A stretch of 64,000 nucleotides of DNA, taken from Rhizodiscina lignyota (Eukaryota). Below the pieces are notes generated by a model that was not told the origin of the DNA, ran no database searches, and saw nothing but the letters and a program-made list of their open reading frames with translations. The translations under genes and the position numbers were made by a program. Below, piece after piece: positions 30,096 through 46,539 of this stretch. Position 1 is the first letter of the stretch, and each line of letters begins with the position of its first letter. Location: NCBI GenBank assembly GCA_010015805.1, contig ML978124.1, forward strand, positions 62,001 to 126,000. The letters are read 5' to 3'.

Positions 30096-32596
30096 TTATG
30101 CTCTCTCCTCATCCGCCGCACCCTTGATCTTAGATTTCTCCCATCTCAACCTCGCATCTTCTTCTTCCATATCCGCATCTCTCCTCCCATCCCTCGGCAA
30201 CATAACAGCCTTGTCTATCGCAACTGGCAAGCCCCTATGCCTTCCTCTGATCATGACCGCACATAAGATCAACTTGCTCAGCACATGCCAGCTACCACTG
30301 AAGCTGTATGCGTTATTCGGCACACCAACGCTAATGCCCACGGTAGCATAGCCGCTCACGACTTCGAAGATAACGTTGAACACGCTGAAATCAGCAGGAT
30401 CTCTCTCAAACTGCCCGCCCTCGATGATCGTGATCAGCCAGATGGCAAGCACAAGCCACCACAGATCGTGCGCGAGCTGTGCGCGGAGCTGCTGTTGCAC
30501 GAAGTATGACTTCTCGTGTTTGTGATTTGTGTCTGGCGAGCCTGCTCGAGTATTTTGTTTACTCAGGCCGCCTGAATGGCCCATCAGAGCACCGAAGAGA
30601 GACCGCTTTCGTTGCTTTTTGTTGCGCTCATAATCCTCGTAACCGGGGTCGTCCGCGTAAATGCCAAGGCTGCGCTCCTCGTAGACATTGCTATTGCGGA
30701 TGGTGATGACGACGGGGTAGACGGAGATGTACATCATCACGACGTACAATACTTGCAGGCTGATACGCGTGCTTGGAATCGGGACAACATAGAAGCCGCC
30801 GCTCCGGACGGCGAAGGCTTGGAAGAGACCGTCGAGGAACTCGATTCCAGGAGAAAGGTGAGTAATGGCTTTGTTGCCTATATTTAGGATTGAAAACATC
30901 GCACAGTCAACGCCATTGAGCACAATGACGGTGGCAAAGAGCCACCACGTTTCGCGGGAAGGGAATAGGTTCGTATAAACACGACGTGGGTGATCAAGCA
31001 GAAATCGCAACGTGCATTTGAAATCATCAACTCTGCCTCTCGCGTCATTGGGGCATAGACGCCACATTGCCCAGATGATAAGGCGGAGGAAGACGGGGTA
31101 ACTGGCTTTAATTAGTAAGACGTTCACAACACACATGTGATGAGGACGGGTGGCTTACCAAGTGTTGCCAGCGAGAATGAAAAGACTCATACTGAGCAAC
31201 ATGTAAACGCTGTCCTGGAATGCCACCATGTTTGCATCAAGCAAGCTCATGCCTGAGTTGTTGAATGCGCTAACCGCATTAAATGCTCCAGTCCACCAAG
31301 GATTCAGCCCGTTCTCTCTTGTTGCAGCAGATCTATCGTTGGTAATGTACGCGCCAAGGCCAATGCAGCCAAGGAGCTGCCATGCAATGAAGTACGCCGG
31401 GACAAGCCACGCGAGCAGTCTAACTGCTTTGTACTCGATACCGCCCAGTCGCTCGCGGTCATCCTCGCTCATGTGGTGAAATGTGGAGTTGCGTGCAAGG
31501 ACGCCAGACGTGAAGAAGTGATGGTGCAATTCTTGGGACTCTGTACCTTCAGCTTGCTCTGGGATGTTGCGGAGGCGCGGCTCGAATGATACCCGAGAAA
31601 TAGTTGACATACTGCGGGTGCGTGAGGTTGGACGGGCGCCGATTCCATTCCGAGGGAGAAGGTGAGAGAGGACAGGATGGTCGTGCTCGCCTTGGGCGTC
31701 GAGATCCGCAGGGTCACGCAGAGGTCGCGGAGTAGAACCAAAAGTGATTCGGGTTTCAGATGCTGGTGACCTCATGATTGTTTGTTGCGATCTTTCCGTA
31801 CGCATTTCAGGCATGCTTTGCGAATCGTCTGTGTCTACTCTCAAATCCGGTCGCCGATCCCTCAATGTGTCAGCATCTTGCGTTACATTTGAAGCCGACG
31901 CCAGCGTATCGTCTTCTCCGGTCTTTGGAGACGCCTCCCTTGGCGTATTTTCTTCTCTGACTTTCGAAAACGACCTTCCCCTTTCAATCTCTCCATTCTC
32001 TTTCTCGGAATTTTCGGGAATAACAGTACCGTTCAATTTGTTGGCTTCAGGATCCCTTTGTAGAGTTACGGGGCGACTGAAGGTCCTTGCACGGGTCAAT
32101 GTTCGCGAGAGAGGTAGCAGCGTTTTCCTCCTCCGAATGCGACGCTCGAGATCAATTTCAGACAGGAAACGATCCTCGAAGGCGTTTCGTCGAACATGTA
32201 CGACAAATGCAGATACGAAAACGGTAGAGCCCATCATGATCAGAACGAACAGCATGAACTGCTGCCACGTATTAAGCTGCGAAAGATTGACAGTATTGAG
32301 ACCTGCCAAAGTCATCGCACTCGCTGGAGGCTTATCAGTACATGGATTAAATAGCGACAGAGATGCAACGTACTCGTGAGAAAAAGGGAGTCCGTGAAAC
32401 TAACAGATCTAAATGGTGTTGATGAGCCCCAGAAGATGAGCGCTGAAAGTAACGCTGTGCCGATGAAATAAATATAGTGAATCTGAATAAAATTGAGATC
32501 TGTAATTGTCGCCAAGGTACTTTGGAAAGCATTTCCAATCAACCTCGACGCTGTTAAGCGACGAGACGGTCTATCCTTTGTCTCGTCGCTCGCCAT
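30096..32596 (-). CDS. Trk-family K+ transporter
   Basis: NFIQIHYIYF, SAMTLAGLNTV, GGIEYKAV, SAFNNSGMSLLD, LAGNT, RSGGF, FEVVSGYATVGIS and RGRHRGLP; two introns. Confidence 0.93.
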
Positions 32597-32999
32597 TATA
32601 GGATCGCGTAAGAGCTGAGAGATGCTGGGCAGGGATTGGGAGATGCCTTCCGCGTAGACGCGCGGAAGGCCGCGAGAAGGTTCGACGACCAGTTCACCAA
32701 GTCAGAAGGCAATCAGGCGTAGACTGGACATCGAAGTATGGCAGTATTGATGAAGAATAGATGTGGAAGTGAGAATCGCGCCGAGTCGTGTTCGAGTCTT
32801 AGAAGATACGTCAGTGGAAAGCTGCAGGGTTATCTGTACAGGGGTATCCACGCGCGAGGAAAAGGAGAAAGGAGTCGCTCTGTTTACACGTGACTATACG
32901 CCCAGCTGGGTTAGTGTGCTTGGCGCGTTGACTCAGCAACATTGCACCCGGCACTCTCTGGCTCAATTGTGCTCATCCTTGCGCTGCCATAATGTACTC

Positions 33000-34169
33000 A
33001 TGCTCTCCGACTTATGCTCAATCAACCTTGACCTCGGTCTTGTTGAGAAATTCGTCGAATTGAGCGCGAGTTCAAGGTTGGGCACTAATACCGACCGGCC
33101 CAAGTCATGGATGTTTGCCCTTCCGAAACTATTCGCCGATTCTAAGACCGCTTCCGTGAGATATAGCATCCTGGCTGCATCCTTGTTATCCTTTGCAGTT
33201 GTGCACCATAACAAGAGTGCCGAGCTAGAAGCTGTCCGATGGTACCTTGCCGGCCTAGAAAGCCATCGGTCGTCAATCCAGGACTTCACTCTCACTAGTG
33301 CAATGGACACGCTAGGCCCAGACAAGGACATTTTTGCGCCCATGATGTTTCTCTATTTCAAGGTGATGGGAAGAACGACGAGCGTTTCTTGGGCACATCA
33401 TATAGCCGCCGCTGTTAAGACGATCGAATCTCGAGGACCTCATCATTATCGTACCGGCTATGATCACGTCACATTCAGGTCTCTTCGCCCATATGCGGTA
33501 CTTATAAGGCCTAAATAATGTTATTCTCGGGGAGCCTTAAGCTAACTAGGGCCTTGCAGGCTTTCAAATCCATCCTTCGCAACGATCCCTGCAGCCTTGC
33601 TTCCCAAGAATGGTGTGAAGCTCTGTTTGGTGGATAGCGGCGATTTGTGTGATTCTCTCCGCAAGGTTCCGGATCTCGGCGAGTCAGAACGACAAGCTCT
33701 CGAGAGGGAGATATTGGTCGTCCTTCAAAATCTGGAAAACTGGTGGTGGCAATTCAAACAGGAGATTGGCGTCGTTGCGCAACCTACCACCGATCTGATT
33801 GATGATATCTCTGAGTCATTCACGATTCCACCGACTGTCAAGTTTATGTATCCCGACACATTGACCGCCAAGTCAGTCTCGTTGTATAACTCCATGAACA
33901 TTATTATTTATTCTGCGTTGGTCGCTCTCGAGGAGTGCAAATCGTCAGAGTTTAGGGGCATCTCTCCCATTCAGCGGTATCATTTTGTTATCGACTATCA
34001 TTCATCCTCGATTTTGGCCGCAGCTGCATACCAGCATTGGCGGCATCCGTTCTGTGGAGATACGCTGCGGACCGCTTTCTCTTTGAAGATCGTATCGTTG
34101 CTGGCTATTGACGAGGTGCATCGATGGGATGCACAAAGGATGATTGAAGATTGGGGAGTGGAGAGCTGA
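33000..34169 (+). pseudogene. Fungal-specific transcription factor domain (Fungal_trans_2-like) gene, probably broken
   Basis: AVRWYLAGL, WAHHIAAA..IESRGP; after the intron the frame reads CSLASQEWCEALFGG* (TAG 33635-33637) while the rest lies in another frame; no Zn2Cys6 motif found upstream. Confidence 0.55.
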
Positions 34170-34649
34170 TATATGCTCGATTCATTGGCCGCTCTTTGCA
34201 GTGTTGAATGTGCCTGGTGAAGGCAATTCTTCATCATGAGTTACAACGCGCGACTGTAGGAAATATCTACTAGCATTCTCCTAACACAACAGTGAATGAA
34301 GTTTACCCATAGCCATCTTCTTCCACTGACAAAAAGAGGAGCAAATGTTTTCTCACAATCTAGGAAGATCAGTCTTGGTGCATCAGTAAGTGAAACCCCA
34401 ACCAACACAGAGCTGCTGCCTCTATGGTCTTTAGCTGAGTTTATTTTAGATGCCAGTTTCTGATTTGATCTCCTCTCTGTTGAGCGAGAGACATCAGCGG
34501 ACAGGATGTTCTACTGGGTCGAGCAGGAAGGTCAACATTTTATAAAGGCTGCTTACTATACGAGCATGATTGGTTGGTTGGCTAAAATGACCTTCTGACA
34601 ACCACGTCTAGCAGTAAAGACTATGAGAAACATCCACGTATCTGGGGTT

Positions 34650-35729
34650 TCACGGACCCTTGCGCACGCTTTCCATCTGAACCAAGCACCGATTGATGAA
34701 TCTCTGGATCTCTTGATTGTTACTTTCAATCGCCATTAAGTGGCCATTCCCGTGAATACCCTTATCAACCAGATAGACGTGCTCTACAGACACGCCTGCG
34801 TCGCGGAGAAACTCCACTGTCAAATGGTCAAATGTCGTATCGTATGAAGCCTCCGCTGTGACCACTACGACGGGAATCGATGCCAAGTTGACCAAATGTC
34901 TCGCCGGGCTTTTCTGACGACAGCCGCTTGCCAGCCCAGCTTCCTGGGGTTTGGGATTATAGTAACGCTCATAGCTGAGCTGCGTCGCATTGATTTCGAG
35001 TGGAGGTGAGTACTGAAGGGGAGTTGAAGTGATGCCAAAGGGATGAGCCAATATTCCCACAATTTGAGGCCGTTTGTCGAAGGGAGGGAAGTCAGGGTAT
35101 TCAAAAGGCGGACCATGGGGCTCCAAAGCCACAATCCCCTTGATCGAGTCAGGACACTCGTCCGCAATGTGCCAACCCAGCGGTCCAGATTGCGAATGCG
35201 TCACCAGGTAGGCAGGCCCGGTTTTTAAGAGAAGAGCCCGAAAAGCCTTGCGGACCAGTTGCTCCATTATCTTGTAATCTGCGATATGGCCGACCTGGCT
35301 GGCATAAAAAGCATCAAAATTAGCATCTCGCATCTTGCCAGTCCCCGGCCATTGTGTGTGCAGCTTAGCTGTTGGCCAGGAATCCAGGTTGGGCGCAGTG
35401 AAGGTAGCTTGCAGTTCCTCGGCGGTGTAATGTGTCAGAGGACCCATGTCAACATGATGATATCGAGATCTACCTATGCCGGGGAGGTCGACGACATAGC
35501 AATCCCGCCCTTCTTGTACTTGTAGCAGTGCCAGCCCAGGTTGGCCGTCTGGAGTGGCTTCGAAGTGCGACCTAGTCTGTGCGGCGCCGTGAATGAAAAT
35601 TATTGCGGGACAATGATGGATGCCTTTAGTATAGTGTCGGATGCACATCTGTCCGGACATATGGGTCCCTTTCCCGTCCCGTATGTACTCTCCTCCGACG
35701 TAGAAGACACTAGGGGGGTGAGAAATCAT
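34650..35729 (-). CDS. Alpha/beta-fold hydrolase
   Basis: FYVGG..GQM, IFIHG, TPDG, VDLPGIGRS, HTQWPGTG, nucleophile elbow THSQSG, LEPHGPPF and GIHGNGHLM; intronless. Confidence 0.88.
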   Translation of the reverse strand: MISHPPSVFYVGGEYIRDGKGTHMSGQMCIRHYTKGIHHCPAIIFIHGAAQTRSHFEATPDGQPGLALLQVQEGRDCYVVDLPGIGRSRYHHVDMGPLTHYTAEELQATFTAPNLDSWPTAKLHTQWPGTGKMRDANFDAFYASQVGHIADYKIMEQLVRKAFRALLLKTGPAYLVTHSQSGPLGWHIADECPDSIKGIVALEPHGPPFEYPDFPPFDKRPQIVGILAHPFGITSTPLQYSPPLEINATQLSYERYYNPKPQEAGLASGCRQKSPARHLVNLASIPVVVVTAEASYDTTFDHLTVEFLRDAGVSVEHVYLVDKGIHGNGHLMAIESNNQEIQRFINRCLVQMESVRKGP

Positions 35730-36953
35730 TATTTCCCTAGGCCACCTGCAGAGTAGTAGAGAATGAGCAGTTTGTCTGTCTTACGAGCCAATTTGTTGCA
35801 TCCAAGCGGTTTAACATTTAAATTTTATCATCTTTCGAGCCAATATTTATGGTCTCTGGCGTGGGTCTAAGGCTATGCCTCTGTTTGGCAACCGATACGA
35901 ATCCGGACTCCGGAATTGCCAGACGACCCAGGTTAGTTGGATTCTTGTTAGATTGCTGTTATTTACATTAAACCCTAGTGTTGAAAGTTTGAATTCGTAG
36001 ATTCTAAATGAATTTGCCGATAGAGTGCTGGCGATTGGCCTATTAGCTGCGGAGCCCCTTAATTCTGAATTCTAGATTGGGTGCTCTCACGAGATCATCC
36101 AGAATCCGAATCCGGAACAGGCCTCGTACCCAATGGGCAGGCAACGGCAAGAGTTCGCAGGCTTCTCGCCGTAACTAAAATTCAATTCGAAAAGTCAAAT
36201 CGTTTGTCAAACAGGGATAGCCTAAAGGGGCTGCGGCAATCTGGAGCGGACACTATTACGGAAATTCTACCATACACGGTGCAATACCCAGATAGGTCCT
36301 GATTCAAAAATAAAAAAGAACCCAGTCGATTAAGTGCGGCTCCTTGGTGTATCGTATCGCTTCATGAAGCTCGATTTATGAGAGTCCTCTCAAAGCTGGG
36401 CCGTTAAAATGCGGGCTCTAAGCTTGAAATTGACCAAAAGAGGACATTCTCACGATGGCTGCATGTGTGGCTCAACTAGTTTCGCCACCCTTGTACGCAC
36501 TGCTTCCATCAACACATCATTTAGCAGTTGAGCCAGATGACACGGTCTGCACAGATGTCCCGAGTCTCCGACTCAAGACACTTGATTCCTGACCCGATCG
36601 GAAGTTGGTCCAGTTCGGTCCTCGGAGTCCAAGGTGATTCTTAGGATATTTCCTGGTATTATTTGTAGTCCTGGCTATATGTTAGCATTGAAGTGAAATT
36701 GTTCAGGAGCAGTAGTGCAGTAAGGTCAGTATTAATTAGAGTCATCGCTCCCTTGGCTTGCGAATGGTAATTCTACGTCAGAGGCATAGATGGGATTCGA
36801 AATAATGCATGGGAATTTCGTCCACAATACTACCAATGTCTTGGATGTGAACCAGATTTGATGATCCTTCAATTCCTAGCTCATTGATCTATGACTCGAT
36901 ATGCTTCAAAATGCAACTATGTGCCGAATTTACAAACCGGGAACACATGATCT

Positions 36954-38543
36954 TCATGGGCTTTTACCGTTCAACAGGGTCGCCGCAGTGGTGATACGGA
37001 TAACTCCAACTCCATTCTCAATGTCGATTTCAGTTCCAAATGGCTGTGAGTATTCCGCTACACTCTCGAGAATCCTCTTAGCGACCTCCGGAGTAGGGCG
37101 TCGGGGTGTCCCCATCTCAGAGCTTGGTCGATTCAACCCCAGATCAGCAGGGTAGAGCAATACCTCCAGCAACTTCCCGCCGACATAGCGACTACTGGCT
37201 AAGATAGCCTCGAAGTTTTCCGGCCTCTGCAACCAAGCCCAACGAGACTCGTTGCTCTCCCCGTCACCAATGACCGGGCCAGTCAAAGAAGCCGGCTCCC
37301 GTTCCGCATCGTCGCGCCAGGAGCGAAACCTTTGATTCTGAAAGACGTAATTATTGATGCCATAGAAGATCGGTTTCCCCTTGTATATCTCCACACCCTT
37401 GAGAGTGTGCACGCCATGGGCAAAGAAAAGATCAGCACCGTTGCCAATAACTTCATGTGCAAATTTGATCTGGTAGTCGGCTGGGTAGTGATCGAAAGAA
37501 TATTTCTGGAAGGTGTAGCGATTTTGATGCCAGTGAATGGTAAAGGCTTCAAAGTCTGAGAATTGTTTACCAGATCGAACCTCGCGCAGGATTTCACGCT
37601 CATCAATCTCGTTCATATCATAGGTGAGTTCCCCTGATGCGGGAGTCACCTTAAAGTGTACTCCAAACGCATCGAGGGTGGTGCCAATGTCTTCTTTACC
37701 GACAATCTTGCGGAGTTCCATCATTTGAGTTTGTGTCACGCCTTGATAGACCTTAAGCCCAAGCGTGTTGTTCTTGAACGTGACCTTGCCCTTCGAATGC
37801 AGATGGTGTTCCAGTCGCCTTCTGATAGAAGCGGCCTCCTCAACAACTGTGTCTGTGGCATTCGGGAGCTGGAAGAGCCGACCGAAAAGAATAACACTAT
37901 CTTCAGGGCCCGACTTGATATCGTCAATAGGATTGGGGACATCCTTGCGCCGTTCGAGGAGGGAATCTTGCATTGCGTGTAGCTGTTGAAGTTGCTCTTT
38001 GTTGACTACAATTGGGTCTCCGGTGGGGATTCTAAACAGTTGAGAGAAATCTGCCACCTCTGCATACGCACCCACGAAACCAACAGCCCCTTTAGGTATC
38101 GAGCGAAATCGAGCAAGTCTTGCCTCACTGACATTGTAATCTGTGCCGACGTAGTCAATGCCCACGCGACGTAGTTGCTCGAAGGTCTGAATCGCGCCGA
38201 GCTCGCCATTGTCGAATGTGTGATTGTTTGCTTTGGACACCATGGCAATGCCCATGGAAGCCCAATCATCCGCAATCTCGGAGGGAGCCTCCATGTGGGA
38301 TACCGGCCCTCGAAATGTGAGTCGGTCGACAATTGTGTTTTCGTTATTGGCCAATGTGATGTCTGCACTTCGCAGCACTCCGACAAGAGCCTGGATGTCT
38401 GGATCATCGCGATTGGAGAACGGAACCATTTGAATGAGATCGCCTACAACCGCAACTGTAAAGGGTTCCTTGATGCGCATGGCAAGTTCGGCTTCCTTGT
38501 CTCGGAAACTCTCCGGAGGCCTCATAGTAAGTGCGTTCGGCAT
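36954..38543 (-). CDS. CapA / PGA_cap (poly-gamma-glutamate synthesis protein A) family metallophosphoesterase-fold protein
   Basis: Intronless 529 aa; VVGD, ANNE, SKANNHTFDNG, IHWH and GADLFFAHGVH..GVEIYKGKPIFYGINNYVFQ are the CapA motifs. Confidence 0.9.
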   Translation of the reverse strand: MPNALTMRPPESFRDKEAELAMRIKEPFTVAVVGDLIQMVPFSNRDDPDIQALVGVLRSADITLANNENTIVDRLTFRGPVSHMEAPSEIADDWASMGIAMVSKANNHTFDNGELGAIQTFEQLRRVGIDYVGTDYNVSEARLARFRSIPKGAVGFVGAYAEVADFSQLFRIPTGDPIVVNKEQLQQLHAMQDSLLERRKDVPNPIDDIKSGPEDSVILFGRLFQLPNATDTVVEEAASIRRRLEHHLHSKGKVTFKNNTLGLKVYQGVTQTQMMELRKIVGKEDIGTTLDAFGVHFKVTPASGELTYDMNEIDEREILREVRSGKQFSDFEAFTIHWHQNRYTFQKYSFDHYPADYQIKFAHEVIGNGADLFFAHGVHTLKGVEIYKGKPIFYGINNYVFQNQRFRSWRDDAEREPASLTGPVIGDGESNESRWAWLQRPENFEAILASSRYVGGKLLEVLLYPADLGLNRPSSEMGTPRRPTPEVAKRILESVAEYSQPFGTEIDIENGVGVIRITTAATLLNGKSP

Positions 38544-39215
38544 TTTGATACTGTAGGGGATAATGGCTCTTTGGCAATTATTATGAAGGTGAGGGGGAAT
38601 CTGGTTCGAGGATCTATTATTTCAAAATCTAAAGGGACAAGTTCAGCTTAAATCAGCCTATTCATGCATTCCATGCCCTTCGTTTAGATAAGTAGATTTT
38701 CATCCGAAAAGCAGTGCGACATACATGATCATCTTGCTCGCCGAAGTTCAGTGTGCTGTGCGTGGTCCGCGCGGATATGATTTGTCAATGGCCTTAGTCC
38801 CAGGAATACAAATTGTATGGAGTCGGTTGAATTTCATGTGGATACCGTGGGAATTTCCATCCTTGGTATAGCTTCAACTGTACTCTAGCCTGAATAGGAA
38901 ATATTTGAGACGCCTGCATAAATGATCAAACGGGAAATCTCTCCGGAGAGTCACCAGCAAGAGACTCTTTCTTAGTGTTTTAATCCTTGCATGTGTCTCC
39001 CATGAGTACGAAGTCCAGACTGTCGGCCTTGCGGGGCCCCAAAGGTCCCGCTTAAGTACGAAATTGGTAAATTTGGCAAGAATCAGTATATAATTATCTC
39101 ATTCATCACGCTTGTCTGGGTCGATCTCAATATTTGATTGTGACAACTTCCCAAGGAAGGGACATTATTATCTAACTTCTTGCTTGTCAATCTTTCCAAA
39201 GTCCTAAGTCTAGAA

Positions 39216-41006
39216 ATGACCTCATCCGTCGGGAAGGTAGAAGATAAGGGGGTCGTTCAGATCGAATTCCAGACTTCAGAAACAAAAGAAGTCTCTGGCT
39301 TCATCTATGAAGATCCAAAGAAAGCACCAAGACCACGTCCAGAAGAGCGTCGACTTGTCTTCAAGGCCGATCTGTTGATTGTTGGGCTGACTTCGTTAGT
39401 CTTCCTGGTGAATCAGTGGGTGAGTGATGCCTTAACTGTCTATTCATACCACTTTTCCCGTTGATGAATACTACTGCAGGATCGAGGCAACATTGGCAAC
39501 GCACGTGTGATGGGCTTTCAAAAGGACTCGAACATCAGATGGCCAGTTCTACAACGCCATCTCTCTATACTGTCTGTCTCTCATTCTCTTGTTGTTCATC
39601 ATCATATGATTGCTAACTGGAGGAAAGACATTGGATATGTCATCTGCATCTTGCCAGCTAATTTGTCTGTCCGCTTTCTCAAACCCCATCGCCAGATTGG
39701 CGGCTGCGTAGTGCTCTTCGCAATACTTTCGTGTTGTATGGCAGATGCAAAAAACGCTGGCACGGTTCTGGCCTTGCGAATTATCTTCGGCTTCATCTCA
39801 GCGTTCCTCCAAGCGTTGACAATCTATACCAGCATGTGGTATAAAAAAAATGAGTTGGCAACACGTACCGGTACGTGGTTTTTGTTCTCCCCTAGCATTT
39901 GCCACCTATTATGTGTCGTGGTGTCTAAATGAGCTAGGGATTTTCTATTCTGCCGCTACCATTGCTGGCGGTTTCAGCGGACTCATTGACTATGCAATCC
40001 AAAAAAACCTTGATGGTGCACTAGGTCATTCAGCTTGGCAATGGCTGTTCATTATTGAAGGCATTGCCGGTGTCTTCGTTGGCCTTTGTTGCTGGATTCT
40101 CCTACCTCCGGCTCCAGATCAAATGAAGAGAAACCACTGGATATTCAGTGAAAAGGAAATCGAGATCGCCATCAGTCGGATGAAGAGTTACAACGTTGAA
40201 CATGCTGAGGTTCAATGGAAGCAGATCTGGCTTGCAGTCAAAGATCCTAAGACGACTCTGTTTTCATTCATGAATGCTGGAACATCTTTAGCGTTGGCTT
40301 CTATTAGTGCGTTCCTTCCGACCTTCATCGCCCAATTTGGATATTCAAAGGGTAAGTTGTTCCTCCGGGCAGCTTATTATGATGATGTCATGCTCATATT
40401 GCCTCAGTTCGAACGCAGCTGTTTTCAGTAATCCCGTACGCTTGCGCCTTCGTCACGTTGATCGTCGTCAATATCTGGTCCGACAAAGTCAACCGCAAAG
40501 GCGTGTTCCTTATGGGCCTGCTCTGCACCAGCTCAGTTGGATACGTCATCCTGATTGCGGTGCATAATGTGAAGGTGAAAATATTCGCTACATGCTTGAT
40601 CACCATGGGTACTTTTCCTGGTGTGACAATTCTGGGGGCCTGGACCAGTATCAATACTGGCGGCTTTACCAAGCGTGCATCCACTTGGGGCATTGCTGAG
40701 GTCACTGGTCAATGCCTCGCCATTCTTGGATCGCACATTTATACGAACCCGCCGCAATACATTAAAGGCCACTCTATTGCCCTGGCATTCAACCTTCTTG
40801 CCTTGATCGCGGTGATTATCTGCTGGTTCTGGATGCGCTGGCTTAATCAACCGAAGGAAAAGGAGGCACTCGAACATGCTGAGTATTGGCCGACTCCCAA
40901 GTTTCGAAACGACGCTAGGGCCGGGCCCTTGCCGCTGTATATATACCAGAAGGAACTTTCCCTCAGAGCCCTGTTGGGCAATGTAGTTTTTTGTTCTGTG
41001 GTTTAA
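39216..41006 (+). pseudogene. ACS-family MFS transporter with apparent frameshift and aberrant C-terminus
   Basis: ERRLVFKAD, DRGNIGNA, WYKKNELATR, AWQWLFIIEG and GGFTKRA; frame slips near 39537 (DGQFYNAISLY lies in another frame); similarity fades after about 40880. Confidence 0.65.
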
Positions 41007-41019
41007 CACCGCAAAACGG

Positions 41020-42700
41020 TCAGACGTGGCGTTCGACTGTGGCGGTGCAATGTCAACAATCGAAAGCTCCGGTCTTTGACAAATTCCTTCTTTTTACCGA
41101 TACCCACAACCCAAACACATCAGTCAAAAAACTTCAGTTCGCCTACAGATTTTGTGACTCTTTGGAGTTAACCATACCGTCGCGAGCAAAGTAAGCTCGT
41201 GGAGCAGATCATACATGTCGTGATCATTCAGGGCATCTGGAATAAAGTAAGTATTGTACTGATCTTTCCGAATTCTAAAAGACCATTAATGATTTATCAG
41301 AACAAGCCACAACTTGTATCCCTGGCAGACAGAGCGATGCAATAGGGCCTGTCCTTGGCTATGAGAACAATGTTTATGCTAACATAGGGCTGATTCTTGC
41401 GTCCTAACCCTTCCGCATTTGAGAGATACCAGAATGTACGGACCCTCGATCCGGATTTCTTCGACTCAGGGATGTATGCGCCTCACACAGTTCCAGTTTA
41501 ATTGATCAAGCAGTGCGGTAAAAATCTCAATCGCTCCCGATCCGCCGCCTGTCGATCACGATTCAAAAGCGTTCATTGAGGAAGCAATCTGTGCCCATAG
41601 AGATGTCGTATACACGGCAAGGATAGTCTCCAATCACCCCTCGAAGCATGGCAAGTGAGGATAAGCAAGTGGACAGAGGGCGAGGAGAGCCCGAATATTG
41701 TGGAATGAAAGTCGCGAGCCTTGGGATAATCGTGATCATCGCTGCACTTTGCGATTGCTCCACGGTGGTGTCGCCGATGCCGATCTTCTTCTTCAACAAT
41801 GGCTTGACATGCGAACTTGGCGCGTGAACTTGACGATTTCGTCTGACAAAATCGTGGTTTCCCCAGAGCAAAATATGTCGAGGGTAAAATGGAGTGACAA
41901 TGGGCAAGAGTTAGCTTTCAGGAGACTAATAACGACCCCTCCAACGTCAAAGTGGACGTCTACATCAAAGTCCAAATGTAGAACAACAGGCCCAATTACC
42001 GGTATGAGATGATCGGACTGGATCCTCACCTCAAAGGTGATCCTCCACTGAGTCCTCTACCGAGAGAGGGCTTCGTGCGGCAAAATCGTCTCTCGGCGCT
42101 GTGTCGGAAAAAGCATGGCACGGAGCAAAGAACTTCTCGCGACGGGTCTGGATCTAGAAGCATACAATTATCGCAGTCAAGAAATGTCATACACTTGGCG
42201 AGCTGAAGAGGGCACAGAATGCCCAGAACCCTGCAAGTTCGAAATGTGCAACGGGACAAATGATTCATACCTGCAATGGATGTTCCGCTTGTTTCAACGA
42301 TCTGCGGCACTTTCCTGGCGGCAGCATCAAATTGGACGAAGGATGGGTTCCCTTTTCCTTGAACGGCGAATCGAAACCAAGGTTTGCCGGACTGAAGGAG
42401 ATACTGGAGGGGATGGATTCGACATGGCCAAGCTCAGGTGTATTACAACTCCGTCTCGACGTCTGCAGCATCTTTCAATGTCCGGCCAAGACCATTGGCG
42501 GTTGTCGGCTGTCTCCTGAGAATCTTTCCATTGAACCCATAATCACCTTAGATGCCGAACAAACACCTCACATCTAGACAGGCTCAGACAAGCAACGGGT
42601 TGAATGCAAACTTTCGCTCGGCGATACAGATTGTTCTTGATTGTAAGCAACGAGAGCCGCTTGAAGAGGAAGAAGTCATGAGACCAATCGCACCACACAG
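41020..42700 (+). pseudogene. Degraded multi-exon gene of unknown family
   Basis: Several GTAAG..CAG/TAG intron-like segments at 41190-41400 and protein-like ORF pieces in shifting frames (41698-42012, 42009-42206, 42115-42519, 42260-42577). Confidence 0.35.
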
Positions 42701-45247: not shown

Positions 45248-46539
45248 TTAATTTCCAAACGCATCTTTCAAGCACTGCTCAGTATCGTTCTCCAGATCTC
45301 TGCAGTAAAGCCACGTCTGGTCCACCCCGCTACCCCAAGTCTCCATCTCTAACTTCTCTCTCTCTTCCTTCGGTAGCGTCGTCTTGTTTAACAGCTGCGT
45401 CAATTTCTTCACTCCGTCGACTCGTGCATTCCTCATCTTCTCCCACGCATCCAATGACTTATTCCACTCTCTCCCCTTCGCCACCTCAGCTAGCACAATC
45501 GTAAACGAATATGCATCCTCGAGCGCCTGGCTTGCGCCCTGTCCCGCTGTGGGAGGAACAGCGTGTGCCGCATCGCCCAGAATAACGACACGGCCTTGCT
45601 CCGACGACCATTTACTCAATCGCGGGACGTTGTAGAACGGCCAGATCGCCACCGTTTCTTCCGGCACCGCTTCCATGGCAGATTGTACAATGTCTGGCCA
45701 GGCATCCTTATCCTTGCAGAACATCGAAAGTAACTTGGCTTTGTCGCGAGCGAGCTCATCCCAGCCTGCGTGATCCTGCTCTGGGTACAAAGCTACCGTA
45801 CCAGCAAAAATGGTACTACCTTCACCGTCCTGTGGTGCCATGATGAAAGTTCCAGGCTTGCTTTGTACTGCAACCGGAAGTGGATAGTCAGGATGTTCCG
45901 GCGGCATACGGAGTGCGGAACGGGGAAACGCGCAATTGATGCTGATCATTCCTGCATAAACGGGTCGCGCAGACGGATTGATGCATCGTCGGACAGTGGA
46001 GTGGATGCCATCTGTACCGATGAGCAAGGAGCAGTGCTTTGTAGTGCTGTCCTCGAATGCAAACTCAACGCCATCTTCGGTCTCCGAAACCACATGCGAG
46101 AATTTGGCGCCATAGAACACCGGGATGCCAGCATCGTTGATCTCAAACCGCAGATGATCTAGCAAGCCTCTTCTGTATAATCGCAAGCAATCGTACCCGA
46201 AAAGCTCCTTGCTGCCGAGATAGTATTCGTCGGTGGTCTCGTGAGCGTTGTTCTTGAAAATCATCTTCTGGAAACTGAACCCCTTGGGCTCGAGGTCTTC
46301 GTAGACACCAAGTTTATCGAGTATTCTCAGAGCGTTTGGTGAGAGGATAAGAGCTCCTGTCGTTCGGTAGATGGTCGAGCGCACCTCATAGATTTTGCAT
46401 GGGATTCCACGTGCGTGAAGGGTCAGCGCCAATGTCATTCCCTGGCGAGAATTAGCGAATTGAAAGAAAGCCCCTGCTCATGGTCACTGACTGCAACACC
46501 GCACCCAATGATTGCGATGTCCTTTGTTGGCGAAGACAT
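45248..46539 (-). CDS. FAD-dependent monooxygenase (salicylate hydroxylase / kynurenine monooxygenase-like, class A)
   Basis: ATG 46539, one intron giving IAIIGCGVAG (GxGxxG); LIGTDGIHSTVR (DG motif); ILGDAAHAVPPTAGQGASQALED (GD motif). Confidence 0.92.

Follow-up and report, generated by a model that had tools for sequence, protein, structure and literature searches.

A horizontally seeded CapA-esterase-transporter module in the fungus Rhizodiscina lignyota, with a candidate role in tricarboxylate catabolism

We analyzed a 64,000-nucleotide (nt) stretch of DNA from the fungus Rhizodiscina lignyota (assembly GCA_010015805.1, contig ML978124.1, positions 62,001 to 126,000), hereafter the window. 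An excerpt of the supplement of PMC11708051 files the species under Dothideomycetes. The locus of interest consists of three neighboring real genes, which encode a CapA-family protein, a SulE-type esterase, and an ACS-type transporter of the major facilitator superfamily (MFS) (Table 1). An initial annotation had described an intronless CapA gene with neither signal peptide nor CapB/CapC partners, followed on its strand by an intronless hydrolase and sharing a divergent region of about 670 nt with the transporter, and this layout holds. CapA is a single open reading frame (ORF), and because both CapA and the hydrolase align unbroken with their orthologues, both are intronless. The hydrolase lies on the CapA strand, 1224 nt downstream; the transporter begins with an ATG at 39216, and 672 nt separate the two divergent starts. 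CapA has no hydrophobic leader. Capsule synthesis was rejected as a function, since models of CapC (PF14102) and PgsB/CapB (TIGR04012) found no match in the genome and gave positive controls in B. subtilis. The proposed CGG/CCG promoter motif did not stand up: CTCCGGAG has a single intergenic copy, and CGG and CCG occur there six times each in about 673 nt, a lower density than the mean across the window (about 13 per kb). Across the window, three copies of CTCCGGAG compare with 0.97 expected (3 of 100 shuffles reached three), and the two other copies fall within the CapA coding sequence.

Table 1. Coordinates of the CapA locus, numbered from the first letter of the window
Feature	Position	Strand	Remarks
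CapA/MslH-like calcineurin-fold enzyme	36954..38543	-	529 amino acids, single ORF, intact
SulE/esterase-713-type alpha/beta hydrolase	34650..35729	-	359 amino acids, frame open, 10/117 otherwise invariant columns altered
ACS-family MFS transporter	39216..41006	+	five exons, probable pseudogene
Divergent intergenic region	38544..39215	.	672 nt; one CTCCGGAG at 38941
Short dispersed repeat	40930..41012	.	3 further genome copies, 78-92% identical

In this genome the trio shows decay: a frameshift and a truncation affect the transporter, and the esterase is eroding, with CapA still intact. This decay escaped the initial annotation, as did the probable bacterial origin of the esterase and the apparent prior cataloguing of the CapA transfer, both taken up below. 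Transporter exons lie at 39216-39419, 39480-39571, 39628-39870, 39938-40351, and 40408 onward, with GT-AG borders. A frameshift near 39537 leads to a first stop at codon 110, homology ends at 40883, and the final ~26 codons are lost, with no match to the missing tail within the next 9 kb. In a leave-one-out comparison of otherwise invariant columns, the window copies are altered at 5 of 171 positions in CapA (other sequences 0-9), 10 of 117 in the hydrolase (others 0-7), and 27 of 239 in the transporter (others 0-7), where a gene model that skips the frameshift accounts for 8 changes and the lost tail for about 6. A Logan contig (depth 159) covers 32500-42500 without differences; because it possibly derives from the same source as the window DNA, it disfavors an assembly error and does nothing more. 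The public gene model (P0241) bypasses the frameshift and appends a non-homologous tail, so that a broken transporter is catalogued as an intact protein. Adjoining the break is the dispersed repeat (60-80 nt, intergenic; other copies L089-L091), possibly a transposon remnant.

Fungal CapA is supported as a horizontal acquisition from bacteria by its nesting among bacterial sequences, its patchy distribution, and its genomic integration. The protein matches PF09587 at E 3.8e-37 (128.6 bits against a cut-off of 27). Among the 120 matches listed, of 300 found, the top 30 share 62-100% identity, include the protein itself, and are fungal where labeled (Fonsecaea, Cladophialophora, Trichoderma, Xylogone, Scytalidium, Pseudogymnoascus, and Niveomyces, with Exophiala next at 58%), while the labeled matches at 52-60% are Bradyrhizobium and Sphingomonas. 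Trees were built from 164, 51, and 30 rows, the largest excluding rows shorter than 430 amino acids and the smaller ones being subsets, using a quick method overall and a careful LG+G4 analysis on the subsets. Part of the rows were assigned as fungal or bacterial by tree position and leader. The fungal rows form one clade (SH support 99; bootstrap 100/99) that lies several supported nodes deep among bacterial rows. A leader-like hydrophobic stretch, called by a hydropathy rule rather than by SignalP, is present in 54 of 58 bacterial and 2 of 31 fungal proteins, and both fungal exceptions resemble over-extended gene calls. The fungal initiator methionine sits at the expected start of the bacterial mature chain. 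Furthermore, an insertion of ~50 residues, which repeats a strand and helix of the G-domain, is common to the fungi and their nearest bacterial relatives and absent in more distant ones. A metagenome scan found no CapA locus above 59% best-segment identity, and hence none of the fungal clade.

The bare transfer of CapA is probably not new, because a matching taxon pattern is already listed. Event4026 in supplementary table s0003 of PMC11708051 reports CapA-family transfers in Fonsecaea pugnacius, Rhizodiscina, Scytalidium, Xylogone, and Hawksworthiomyces, with best matches of 24-29%; the excerpted record states no cluster, close donor, or function, and the word “capsule” is absent from the excerpted main text. 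From the taxa alone, not from sequence, we infer that Event4026 is the family studied here. The same excerpted supplement holds other CapA transfer events (Event2434 and Event8593). The R. lignyota genome also carries a second, native CapA (L001, G000:C3:1663461-1667291), which shares PF09587 and differs in being a short form without G- and C-domains that alignment places in a separate lineage.

The esterase is likely a second acquisition from bacteria, judging from its tree position among relatives of which few carry organism names. It resembles SulE and esterase 713 (PDB 8GOL, 1QLW; excerpts of PMC10356948), with which it shares the THS nucleophile elbow and a Ser-Glu-His triad (S179-E203-H330). 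It differs from them in having no leader and is only distantly similar (E about 1e-16). The fungal clade groups instead with leaderless proteins at 48-51% identity, including actinobacterial ones; the labeled one is Streptacidiphilus. An approximately unbiased (AU) test rejects joining it to the genome's native intron-bearing paralogue (p 4e-4; one paralogue exon used). An Atlas search with the esterase returned generic hydrolase clusters only.

The transporter is native to fungi. It is an ordinary ACS-type carrier gene with introns, and the genome contains many paralogues of it; ACS carriers transport carboxylates and, in some cases, dipeptides. Its orthologues match TIGR00893 at E 1e-40, below the cut-off; the window copy is broken. 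In T. harzianum, a long MFS model of 893 amino acids (P0448) falls in a cluster that also contains hydrolases, and is probably a transporter and an esterase fused in gene calling.

Linkage of the three genes recurs in distant fungi. Adjacency was read from consecutive locus tags only, which do not give orientation. Four Chaetothyriales carry all three genes side by side (F. multimorphosa Z520_02812-14, F. erecta AYL99_08112-14, C. immunda CLAIMM_00855-57, and C. psammophila A1O5_01669-71). CapA adjoins the transporter in F. pedrosoi, Niveomyces, and T. arundinaceum, and the hydrolase adjoins the transporter in T. virens, T. cf. simile, T. citrinoviride, Cladobotryum, and Scytalidium lignicola. 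The contigs bearing CapA and the transporter in Xylogone are equal in size and the hydrolase contig is not; five further gene pairs on equal-sized contigs are a weak sign of linkage. Judged by gene order, linkage is conserved across distant taxa, as in fungal metabolic clusters. The trio is a real, conserved, horizontally seeded fungal module, and not a capsule system.

The gene trees of the module break up the fungal classes. For CapA, AU tests reject the monophyly of Leotiomycetes (p 2e-32), of Sordariomycetes (p 3e-83), and of Chaetothyriales (p 9e-4), in a set of 13 fungal and 7 bacterial rows with 10 fungal-clade rows dropped (LG+G4); these tests were run after an earlier tree had been inspected. 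The MFS tree repeats a Niveomyces-Scytalidium-Xylogone grouping and likewise rejects Sordariomycetes as a clade (p 3e-10). Fungus-to-fungus transfer is the simplest reading of these trees. The bacterial origin that the initial annotation considered possible is supported, as are a patchy occurrence in fungi and a conserved neighborhood; neither the tree nor the linkage gave the outcome that would have refuted it. We consider it very probable that the trio arose in fungi by the joining of a native transporter to two enzymes of bacterial origin, and that it then spread patchily between classes.

CapA resembles the peptide epimerase MslH at its active site, yet by sequence appears to fall outside the MslH family. 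MslH is the best fold match of the CapA AlphaFold model (E 2.5e-32; template modeling score 0.73 by target), with YmdB-like and nucleotidase folds far behind (1e-4). DxH and GD are the second-metal motifs of two-metal calcineurin-like phosphoesterases; CapA has GD35LI without the His of DxH, and its site follows MslH. The claim that CapA carries all metal-binding motifs thus stands for the one-metal site of MslH and fails for the two-metal phosphoesterase site. Excerpts of PMC10406935 describe MslH (PDB 8GQ9/8ITG) as binding one Ca through E44, N87, H259, and H261, while the dyads H88/D91 and H295/D11 shift the alpha proton of the metal-bound C-terminal carboxylate, second-metal ligands acting as an acid/base dyad; all eight residues were probed by mutation. 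CapA shares the G- and C-domain fold, the one-metal site, and both His/Asp dyads, its D35, E68, N107, H108, D111, H337, H339, and H379 corresponding to MslH D11, E44, N87, H88, D91, H259, H261, and H295. Seven of these eight are invariant in 29 fungal CapA rows, and D111 is nearly so.

CapA also differs from MslH in several respects. The two proteins are 23% identical, and CapA adds the duplicated G-domain segment and a clade-specific loop (HWHQNR...YSFDHYP). The Gly-rich Trp pocket of MslH is not conserved: its Gly60-62 loop aligns to S82-H83 and Ile319 to N403. The loop after metal ligand H339 has invariant N341, R342, Q346, Y348, S349, D351, and H352, residues that suggest a polar pocket, possibly polyanion-binding. 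Mean confidence of the model (predicted local distance difference test, pLDDT) is 72.5, but local values under 50 at residues 341-351 and 399-435 kept us from deriving pocket geometry from the model. Against the MslH epimerase model NF038314, CapA scores 114.7 bits, where the equivalog cut-off is 700, and lasso genes are absent among the scanned CapA neighbors. P0101 (Lacunisphaera) has Lys in place of the catalytic His108 and Gln in place of His376, which suggests altered chemistry in its branch.

Most donor-clade relatives of fungal CapA lie near tricarboxylate genes. We examined 86 bacterial CapA loci, five of them in the donor clade with the duplicated G-domain, by comparing 72 hand-picked neighboring ORFs with Pfam and 30 proteins with NCBIfam, and then searching all 86 loci by tblastn for chosen classes. 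In the donor clade, L008 carries a binding protein, a TonB receptor, TcuC (by tblastn), and two CapA genes opposite a TctE-like sensor; in L009, CapA abuts TcuC; L094, a plasmid of Novosphingobium humi, has TctD/E-like genes, a TonB receptor, TcuC, and an ACS carrier; in L004 (Bradyrhizobium), a PrpD-family gene lies on either side of CapA, and the locus also has CitE-like, methylisocitrate-lyase-like, and CoA-transferase genes; and L010 (3.3 kb) shows an outer-membrane barrel only. TctDE responds to citrate. TcuC exceeds the curated cut-off in L009, L094, L081, and L098, against a base rate of 2 in 201 Alphaproteobacteria genomes. Tricarboxylate genes (TcuC, PrpD, or CitE) occur in 4/5 donor-clade and 4/81 other loci (Fisher p 1.6e-4), a count that involves five non-independent loci and gene classes picked after looking; for loci of at least 4 kb, the figures are 4/4 and 4/57. 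Four GTDB samples (401, 301, 401, and 301 genomes) yielded no further donor loci, the center genome alone matching in each. The tandem CapA genes behind TcuC in L008 (8571-13245) belong to different subclades, and another locus (L046) has four CapA genes in a row.

These donor-clade contexts favor a citrate-like substrate over gamma-glutamyl peptides, and a tricarboxylate-type substrate seems somewhat probable for the module. TcuC and TctD-like genes adjoin donor-clade CapA. Three loci contain a ModA-like gene; a Pseudomonas aconitate isomerase is ModA-like, and the aconitate isomerase tarA has a fold different from that of CapA. Bacterial tricarboxylate uptake and trans-aconitate assimilation operons (TcuC, TctDE, tarAB) likewise join an importer to a converting enzyme, and the excerpts of PMC11495376 that describe them name neither CapA nor ModA.

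Our best explanation, offered tentatively, is a catabolic trio that imports a citrate-like acid, removes its ester, and epimerizes its alpha carbon. Building on the observed origin, linkage, and active-site residues, the predicted transport, ester cleavage, and epimerization would proceed as follows. The ACS carrier would import a citrate-like tricarboxylic acid, its ester, or its lactone, and the Ser-Glu-His esterase would liberate the carboxylate. CapA would hold this carboxylate on one divalent metal, while His108/Asp111 and His379/Asp35 remove and return the alpha proton, as in MslH; such epimerase or isomerase chemistry on a tricarboxylate-type substrate is conceivable, if short of an even chance. 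An unusable stereoisomer (e.g., allo-isocitrate, methylcitrate, or an alkylcitrate diastereomer) would thereby become a form accepted by central metabolism. In the donors, periplasmic CapA would act ahead of TcuC import; in fungi, with the leader lost, it would act after import.

Two other chemistries have to be set against this catabolic epimerase model. Within the tricarboxylate theme, CapA could be a metal-dependent hydrolase that frees citrate or tricarballylate from an ester, lactone, amide (as in citrate siderophores), or phosphate-ester conjugate. Characterized calcineurin-fold members are mostly hydrolases, hydrolysis ahead of import would be sensible for the periplasmic donor enzymes, whose operons include a TonB receptor, a binding protein, and TcuC (L008, L094), and esterases or hydrolases adjoin some bacterial relatives (L005, L019, L023, L041). 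However, the CapA site has the one-metal arrangement of MslH, with second-metal ligands as an acid/base dyad (excerpts of PMC10406935), and the fungal trio already includes an esterase; we regard a hydrolase as rather unlikely. Unlikelier still is a peptide pathway, in which gamma-glutamyl, D-amino-acid, or N-acyl peptides would be broken down and CapA, like MslH, would epimerize peptides at the C terminus. MslH is the sole characterized structural match found, distant relatives such as y4uA sit in dipeptide-transport (ATP-binding cassette) and Xaa-Pro peptidase operons, L045 lies beside gamma-glutamyltranspeptidase, and some ACS carriers transport dipeptides, but the peptide-related locus contexts belong to relatives with best-segment identity of at most 38%. 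The MslH Gly60-62 loop and Ile319 are replaced (S82-H83, N403), the NF038314 score is 115 against 700, and there is no capB or capC. The general idea of the initial annotation, import and processing of an acidic compound, fits, whereas its gamma-glutamyl, D-amino-acid peptide, or phosphoester substrates fit worse than a tricarboxylate. The CapA/PgsA protein of poly-gamma-glutamate synthesis has the PF09587 domain in common with the window CapA, which differs in lacking a membrane anchor or leader and any CapB/CapC in the genome.

The unity of the trio can also be questioned. The stable unit might be esterase plus transporter, with CapA hitchhiking by linkage in a separate role, or the trio might serve detoxification or export; we give these options little credence. 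The esterase-transporter pair is adjacent without CapA in five genomes, and here CapA is intact while the other two genes decay. Nevertheless, CapA adjoins an MFS gene in Niveomyces and T. arundinaceum, groupings are common to the three gene trees, and genomes with split clusters often keep all three genes. Bacterial contamination or misassembly was rejected and is extremely improbable: CapA and the esterase lack introns and have relatives in bacteria, but the two genes neighbor a fungal gene with introns on a contig of 2.6 Mb, their GC content and third-position GC are as in neighboring genes, and a single contig spans 32500-42500. Synteny of the orthologues in independent fungal genomes refutes it. 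Several points weigh against our own account, besides the small post hoc context count. In T. virens, T. cf. simile, and Scytalidium lignicola, CapA lies apart from the linked esterase and transporter; none was seen for Cladobotryum and T. citrinoviride among the matches listed; and several Chaetothyriales carry an additional esterase copy beside which no CapA was seen. Hidden paralogy with heavy loss may account for the trees in place of transfer between fungi, and the grouping of the window gene with Chaetothyriales is not by itself proof of such transfer. No tricarboxylate gene occurs in L005, which is closely related but lacks the duplication. Because the fungal transporter is of ACS type and not TcuC, the donor substrate need not carry over to fungi. 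Finally, the unrelated native L001 retains 7/8 site residues, so the eight residues are not diagnostic.

A bolder reading, which we hold to be doubtful, is that this CapA subfamily acts on citrate-like acids as a calcineurin-fold epimerase/isomerase, the counterpart of MslH for small molecules, and that wood- and fungus-dwelling fungi passed the trio across four classes, consuming a tricarboxylate metabolite of a rival or host. If true, the subfamily could possibly encode an activity that is not known to have a gene, such as isocitrate epimerase (EC 5.1.2.6). Proteins of the CapA family occur widely, and most are wrongly labeled “capsule synthesis”; ties to bacterial tricarboxylate uptake and to a fungal esterase and transporter give this subfamily a short substrate list and a direct assay. 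Searches of open-access text, at the level of listings, yielded no mention of the fungal cluster or its tricarboxylate link. The module would also be a clear case of a cluster drawn from two bacterial donors and a native gene that exchanged a periplasmic for a cytosolic location, passed between fungal classes, and is now decaying in one host.

Some features of the surroundings bear on mobility and regulation. Starship cargo was rejected as an origin, DUF3435 matches being found on another contig only; one is a tyrosine recombinase of Starship captain type with one internal TGA (G000:C2:2387634-2388940). No Zn2Cys6 motif was seen within window positions 32400-33000. Adjoining the hydrolase, 32754-34169 (+) gives a weak Fungal_trans_2 match (E 0.0025, below the cut-off) and may be a degenerate regulator of the trio. 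The flanks encode a Trk-type potassium transporter and an FAD-dependent monooxygenase (30096-32315 and 45248-46438), which nothing ties to the trio.

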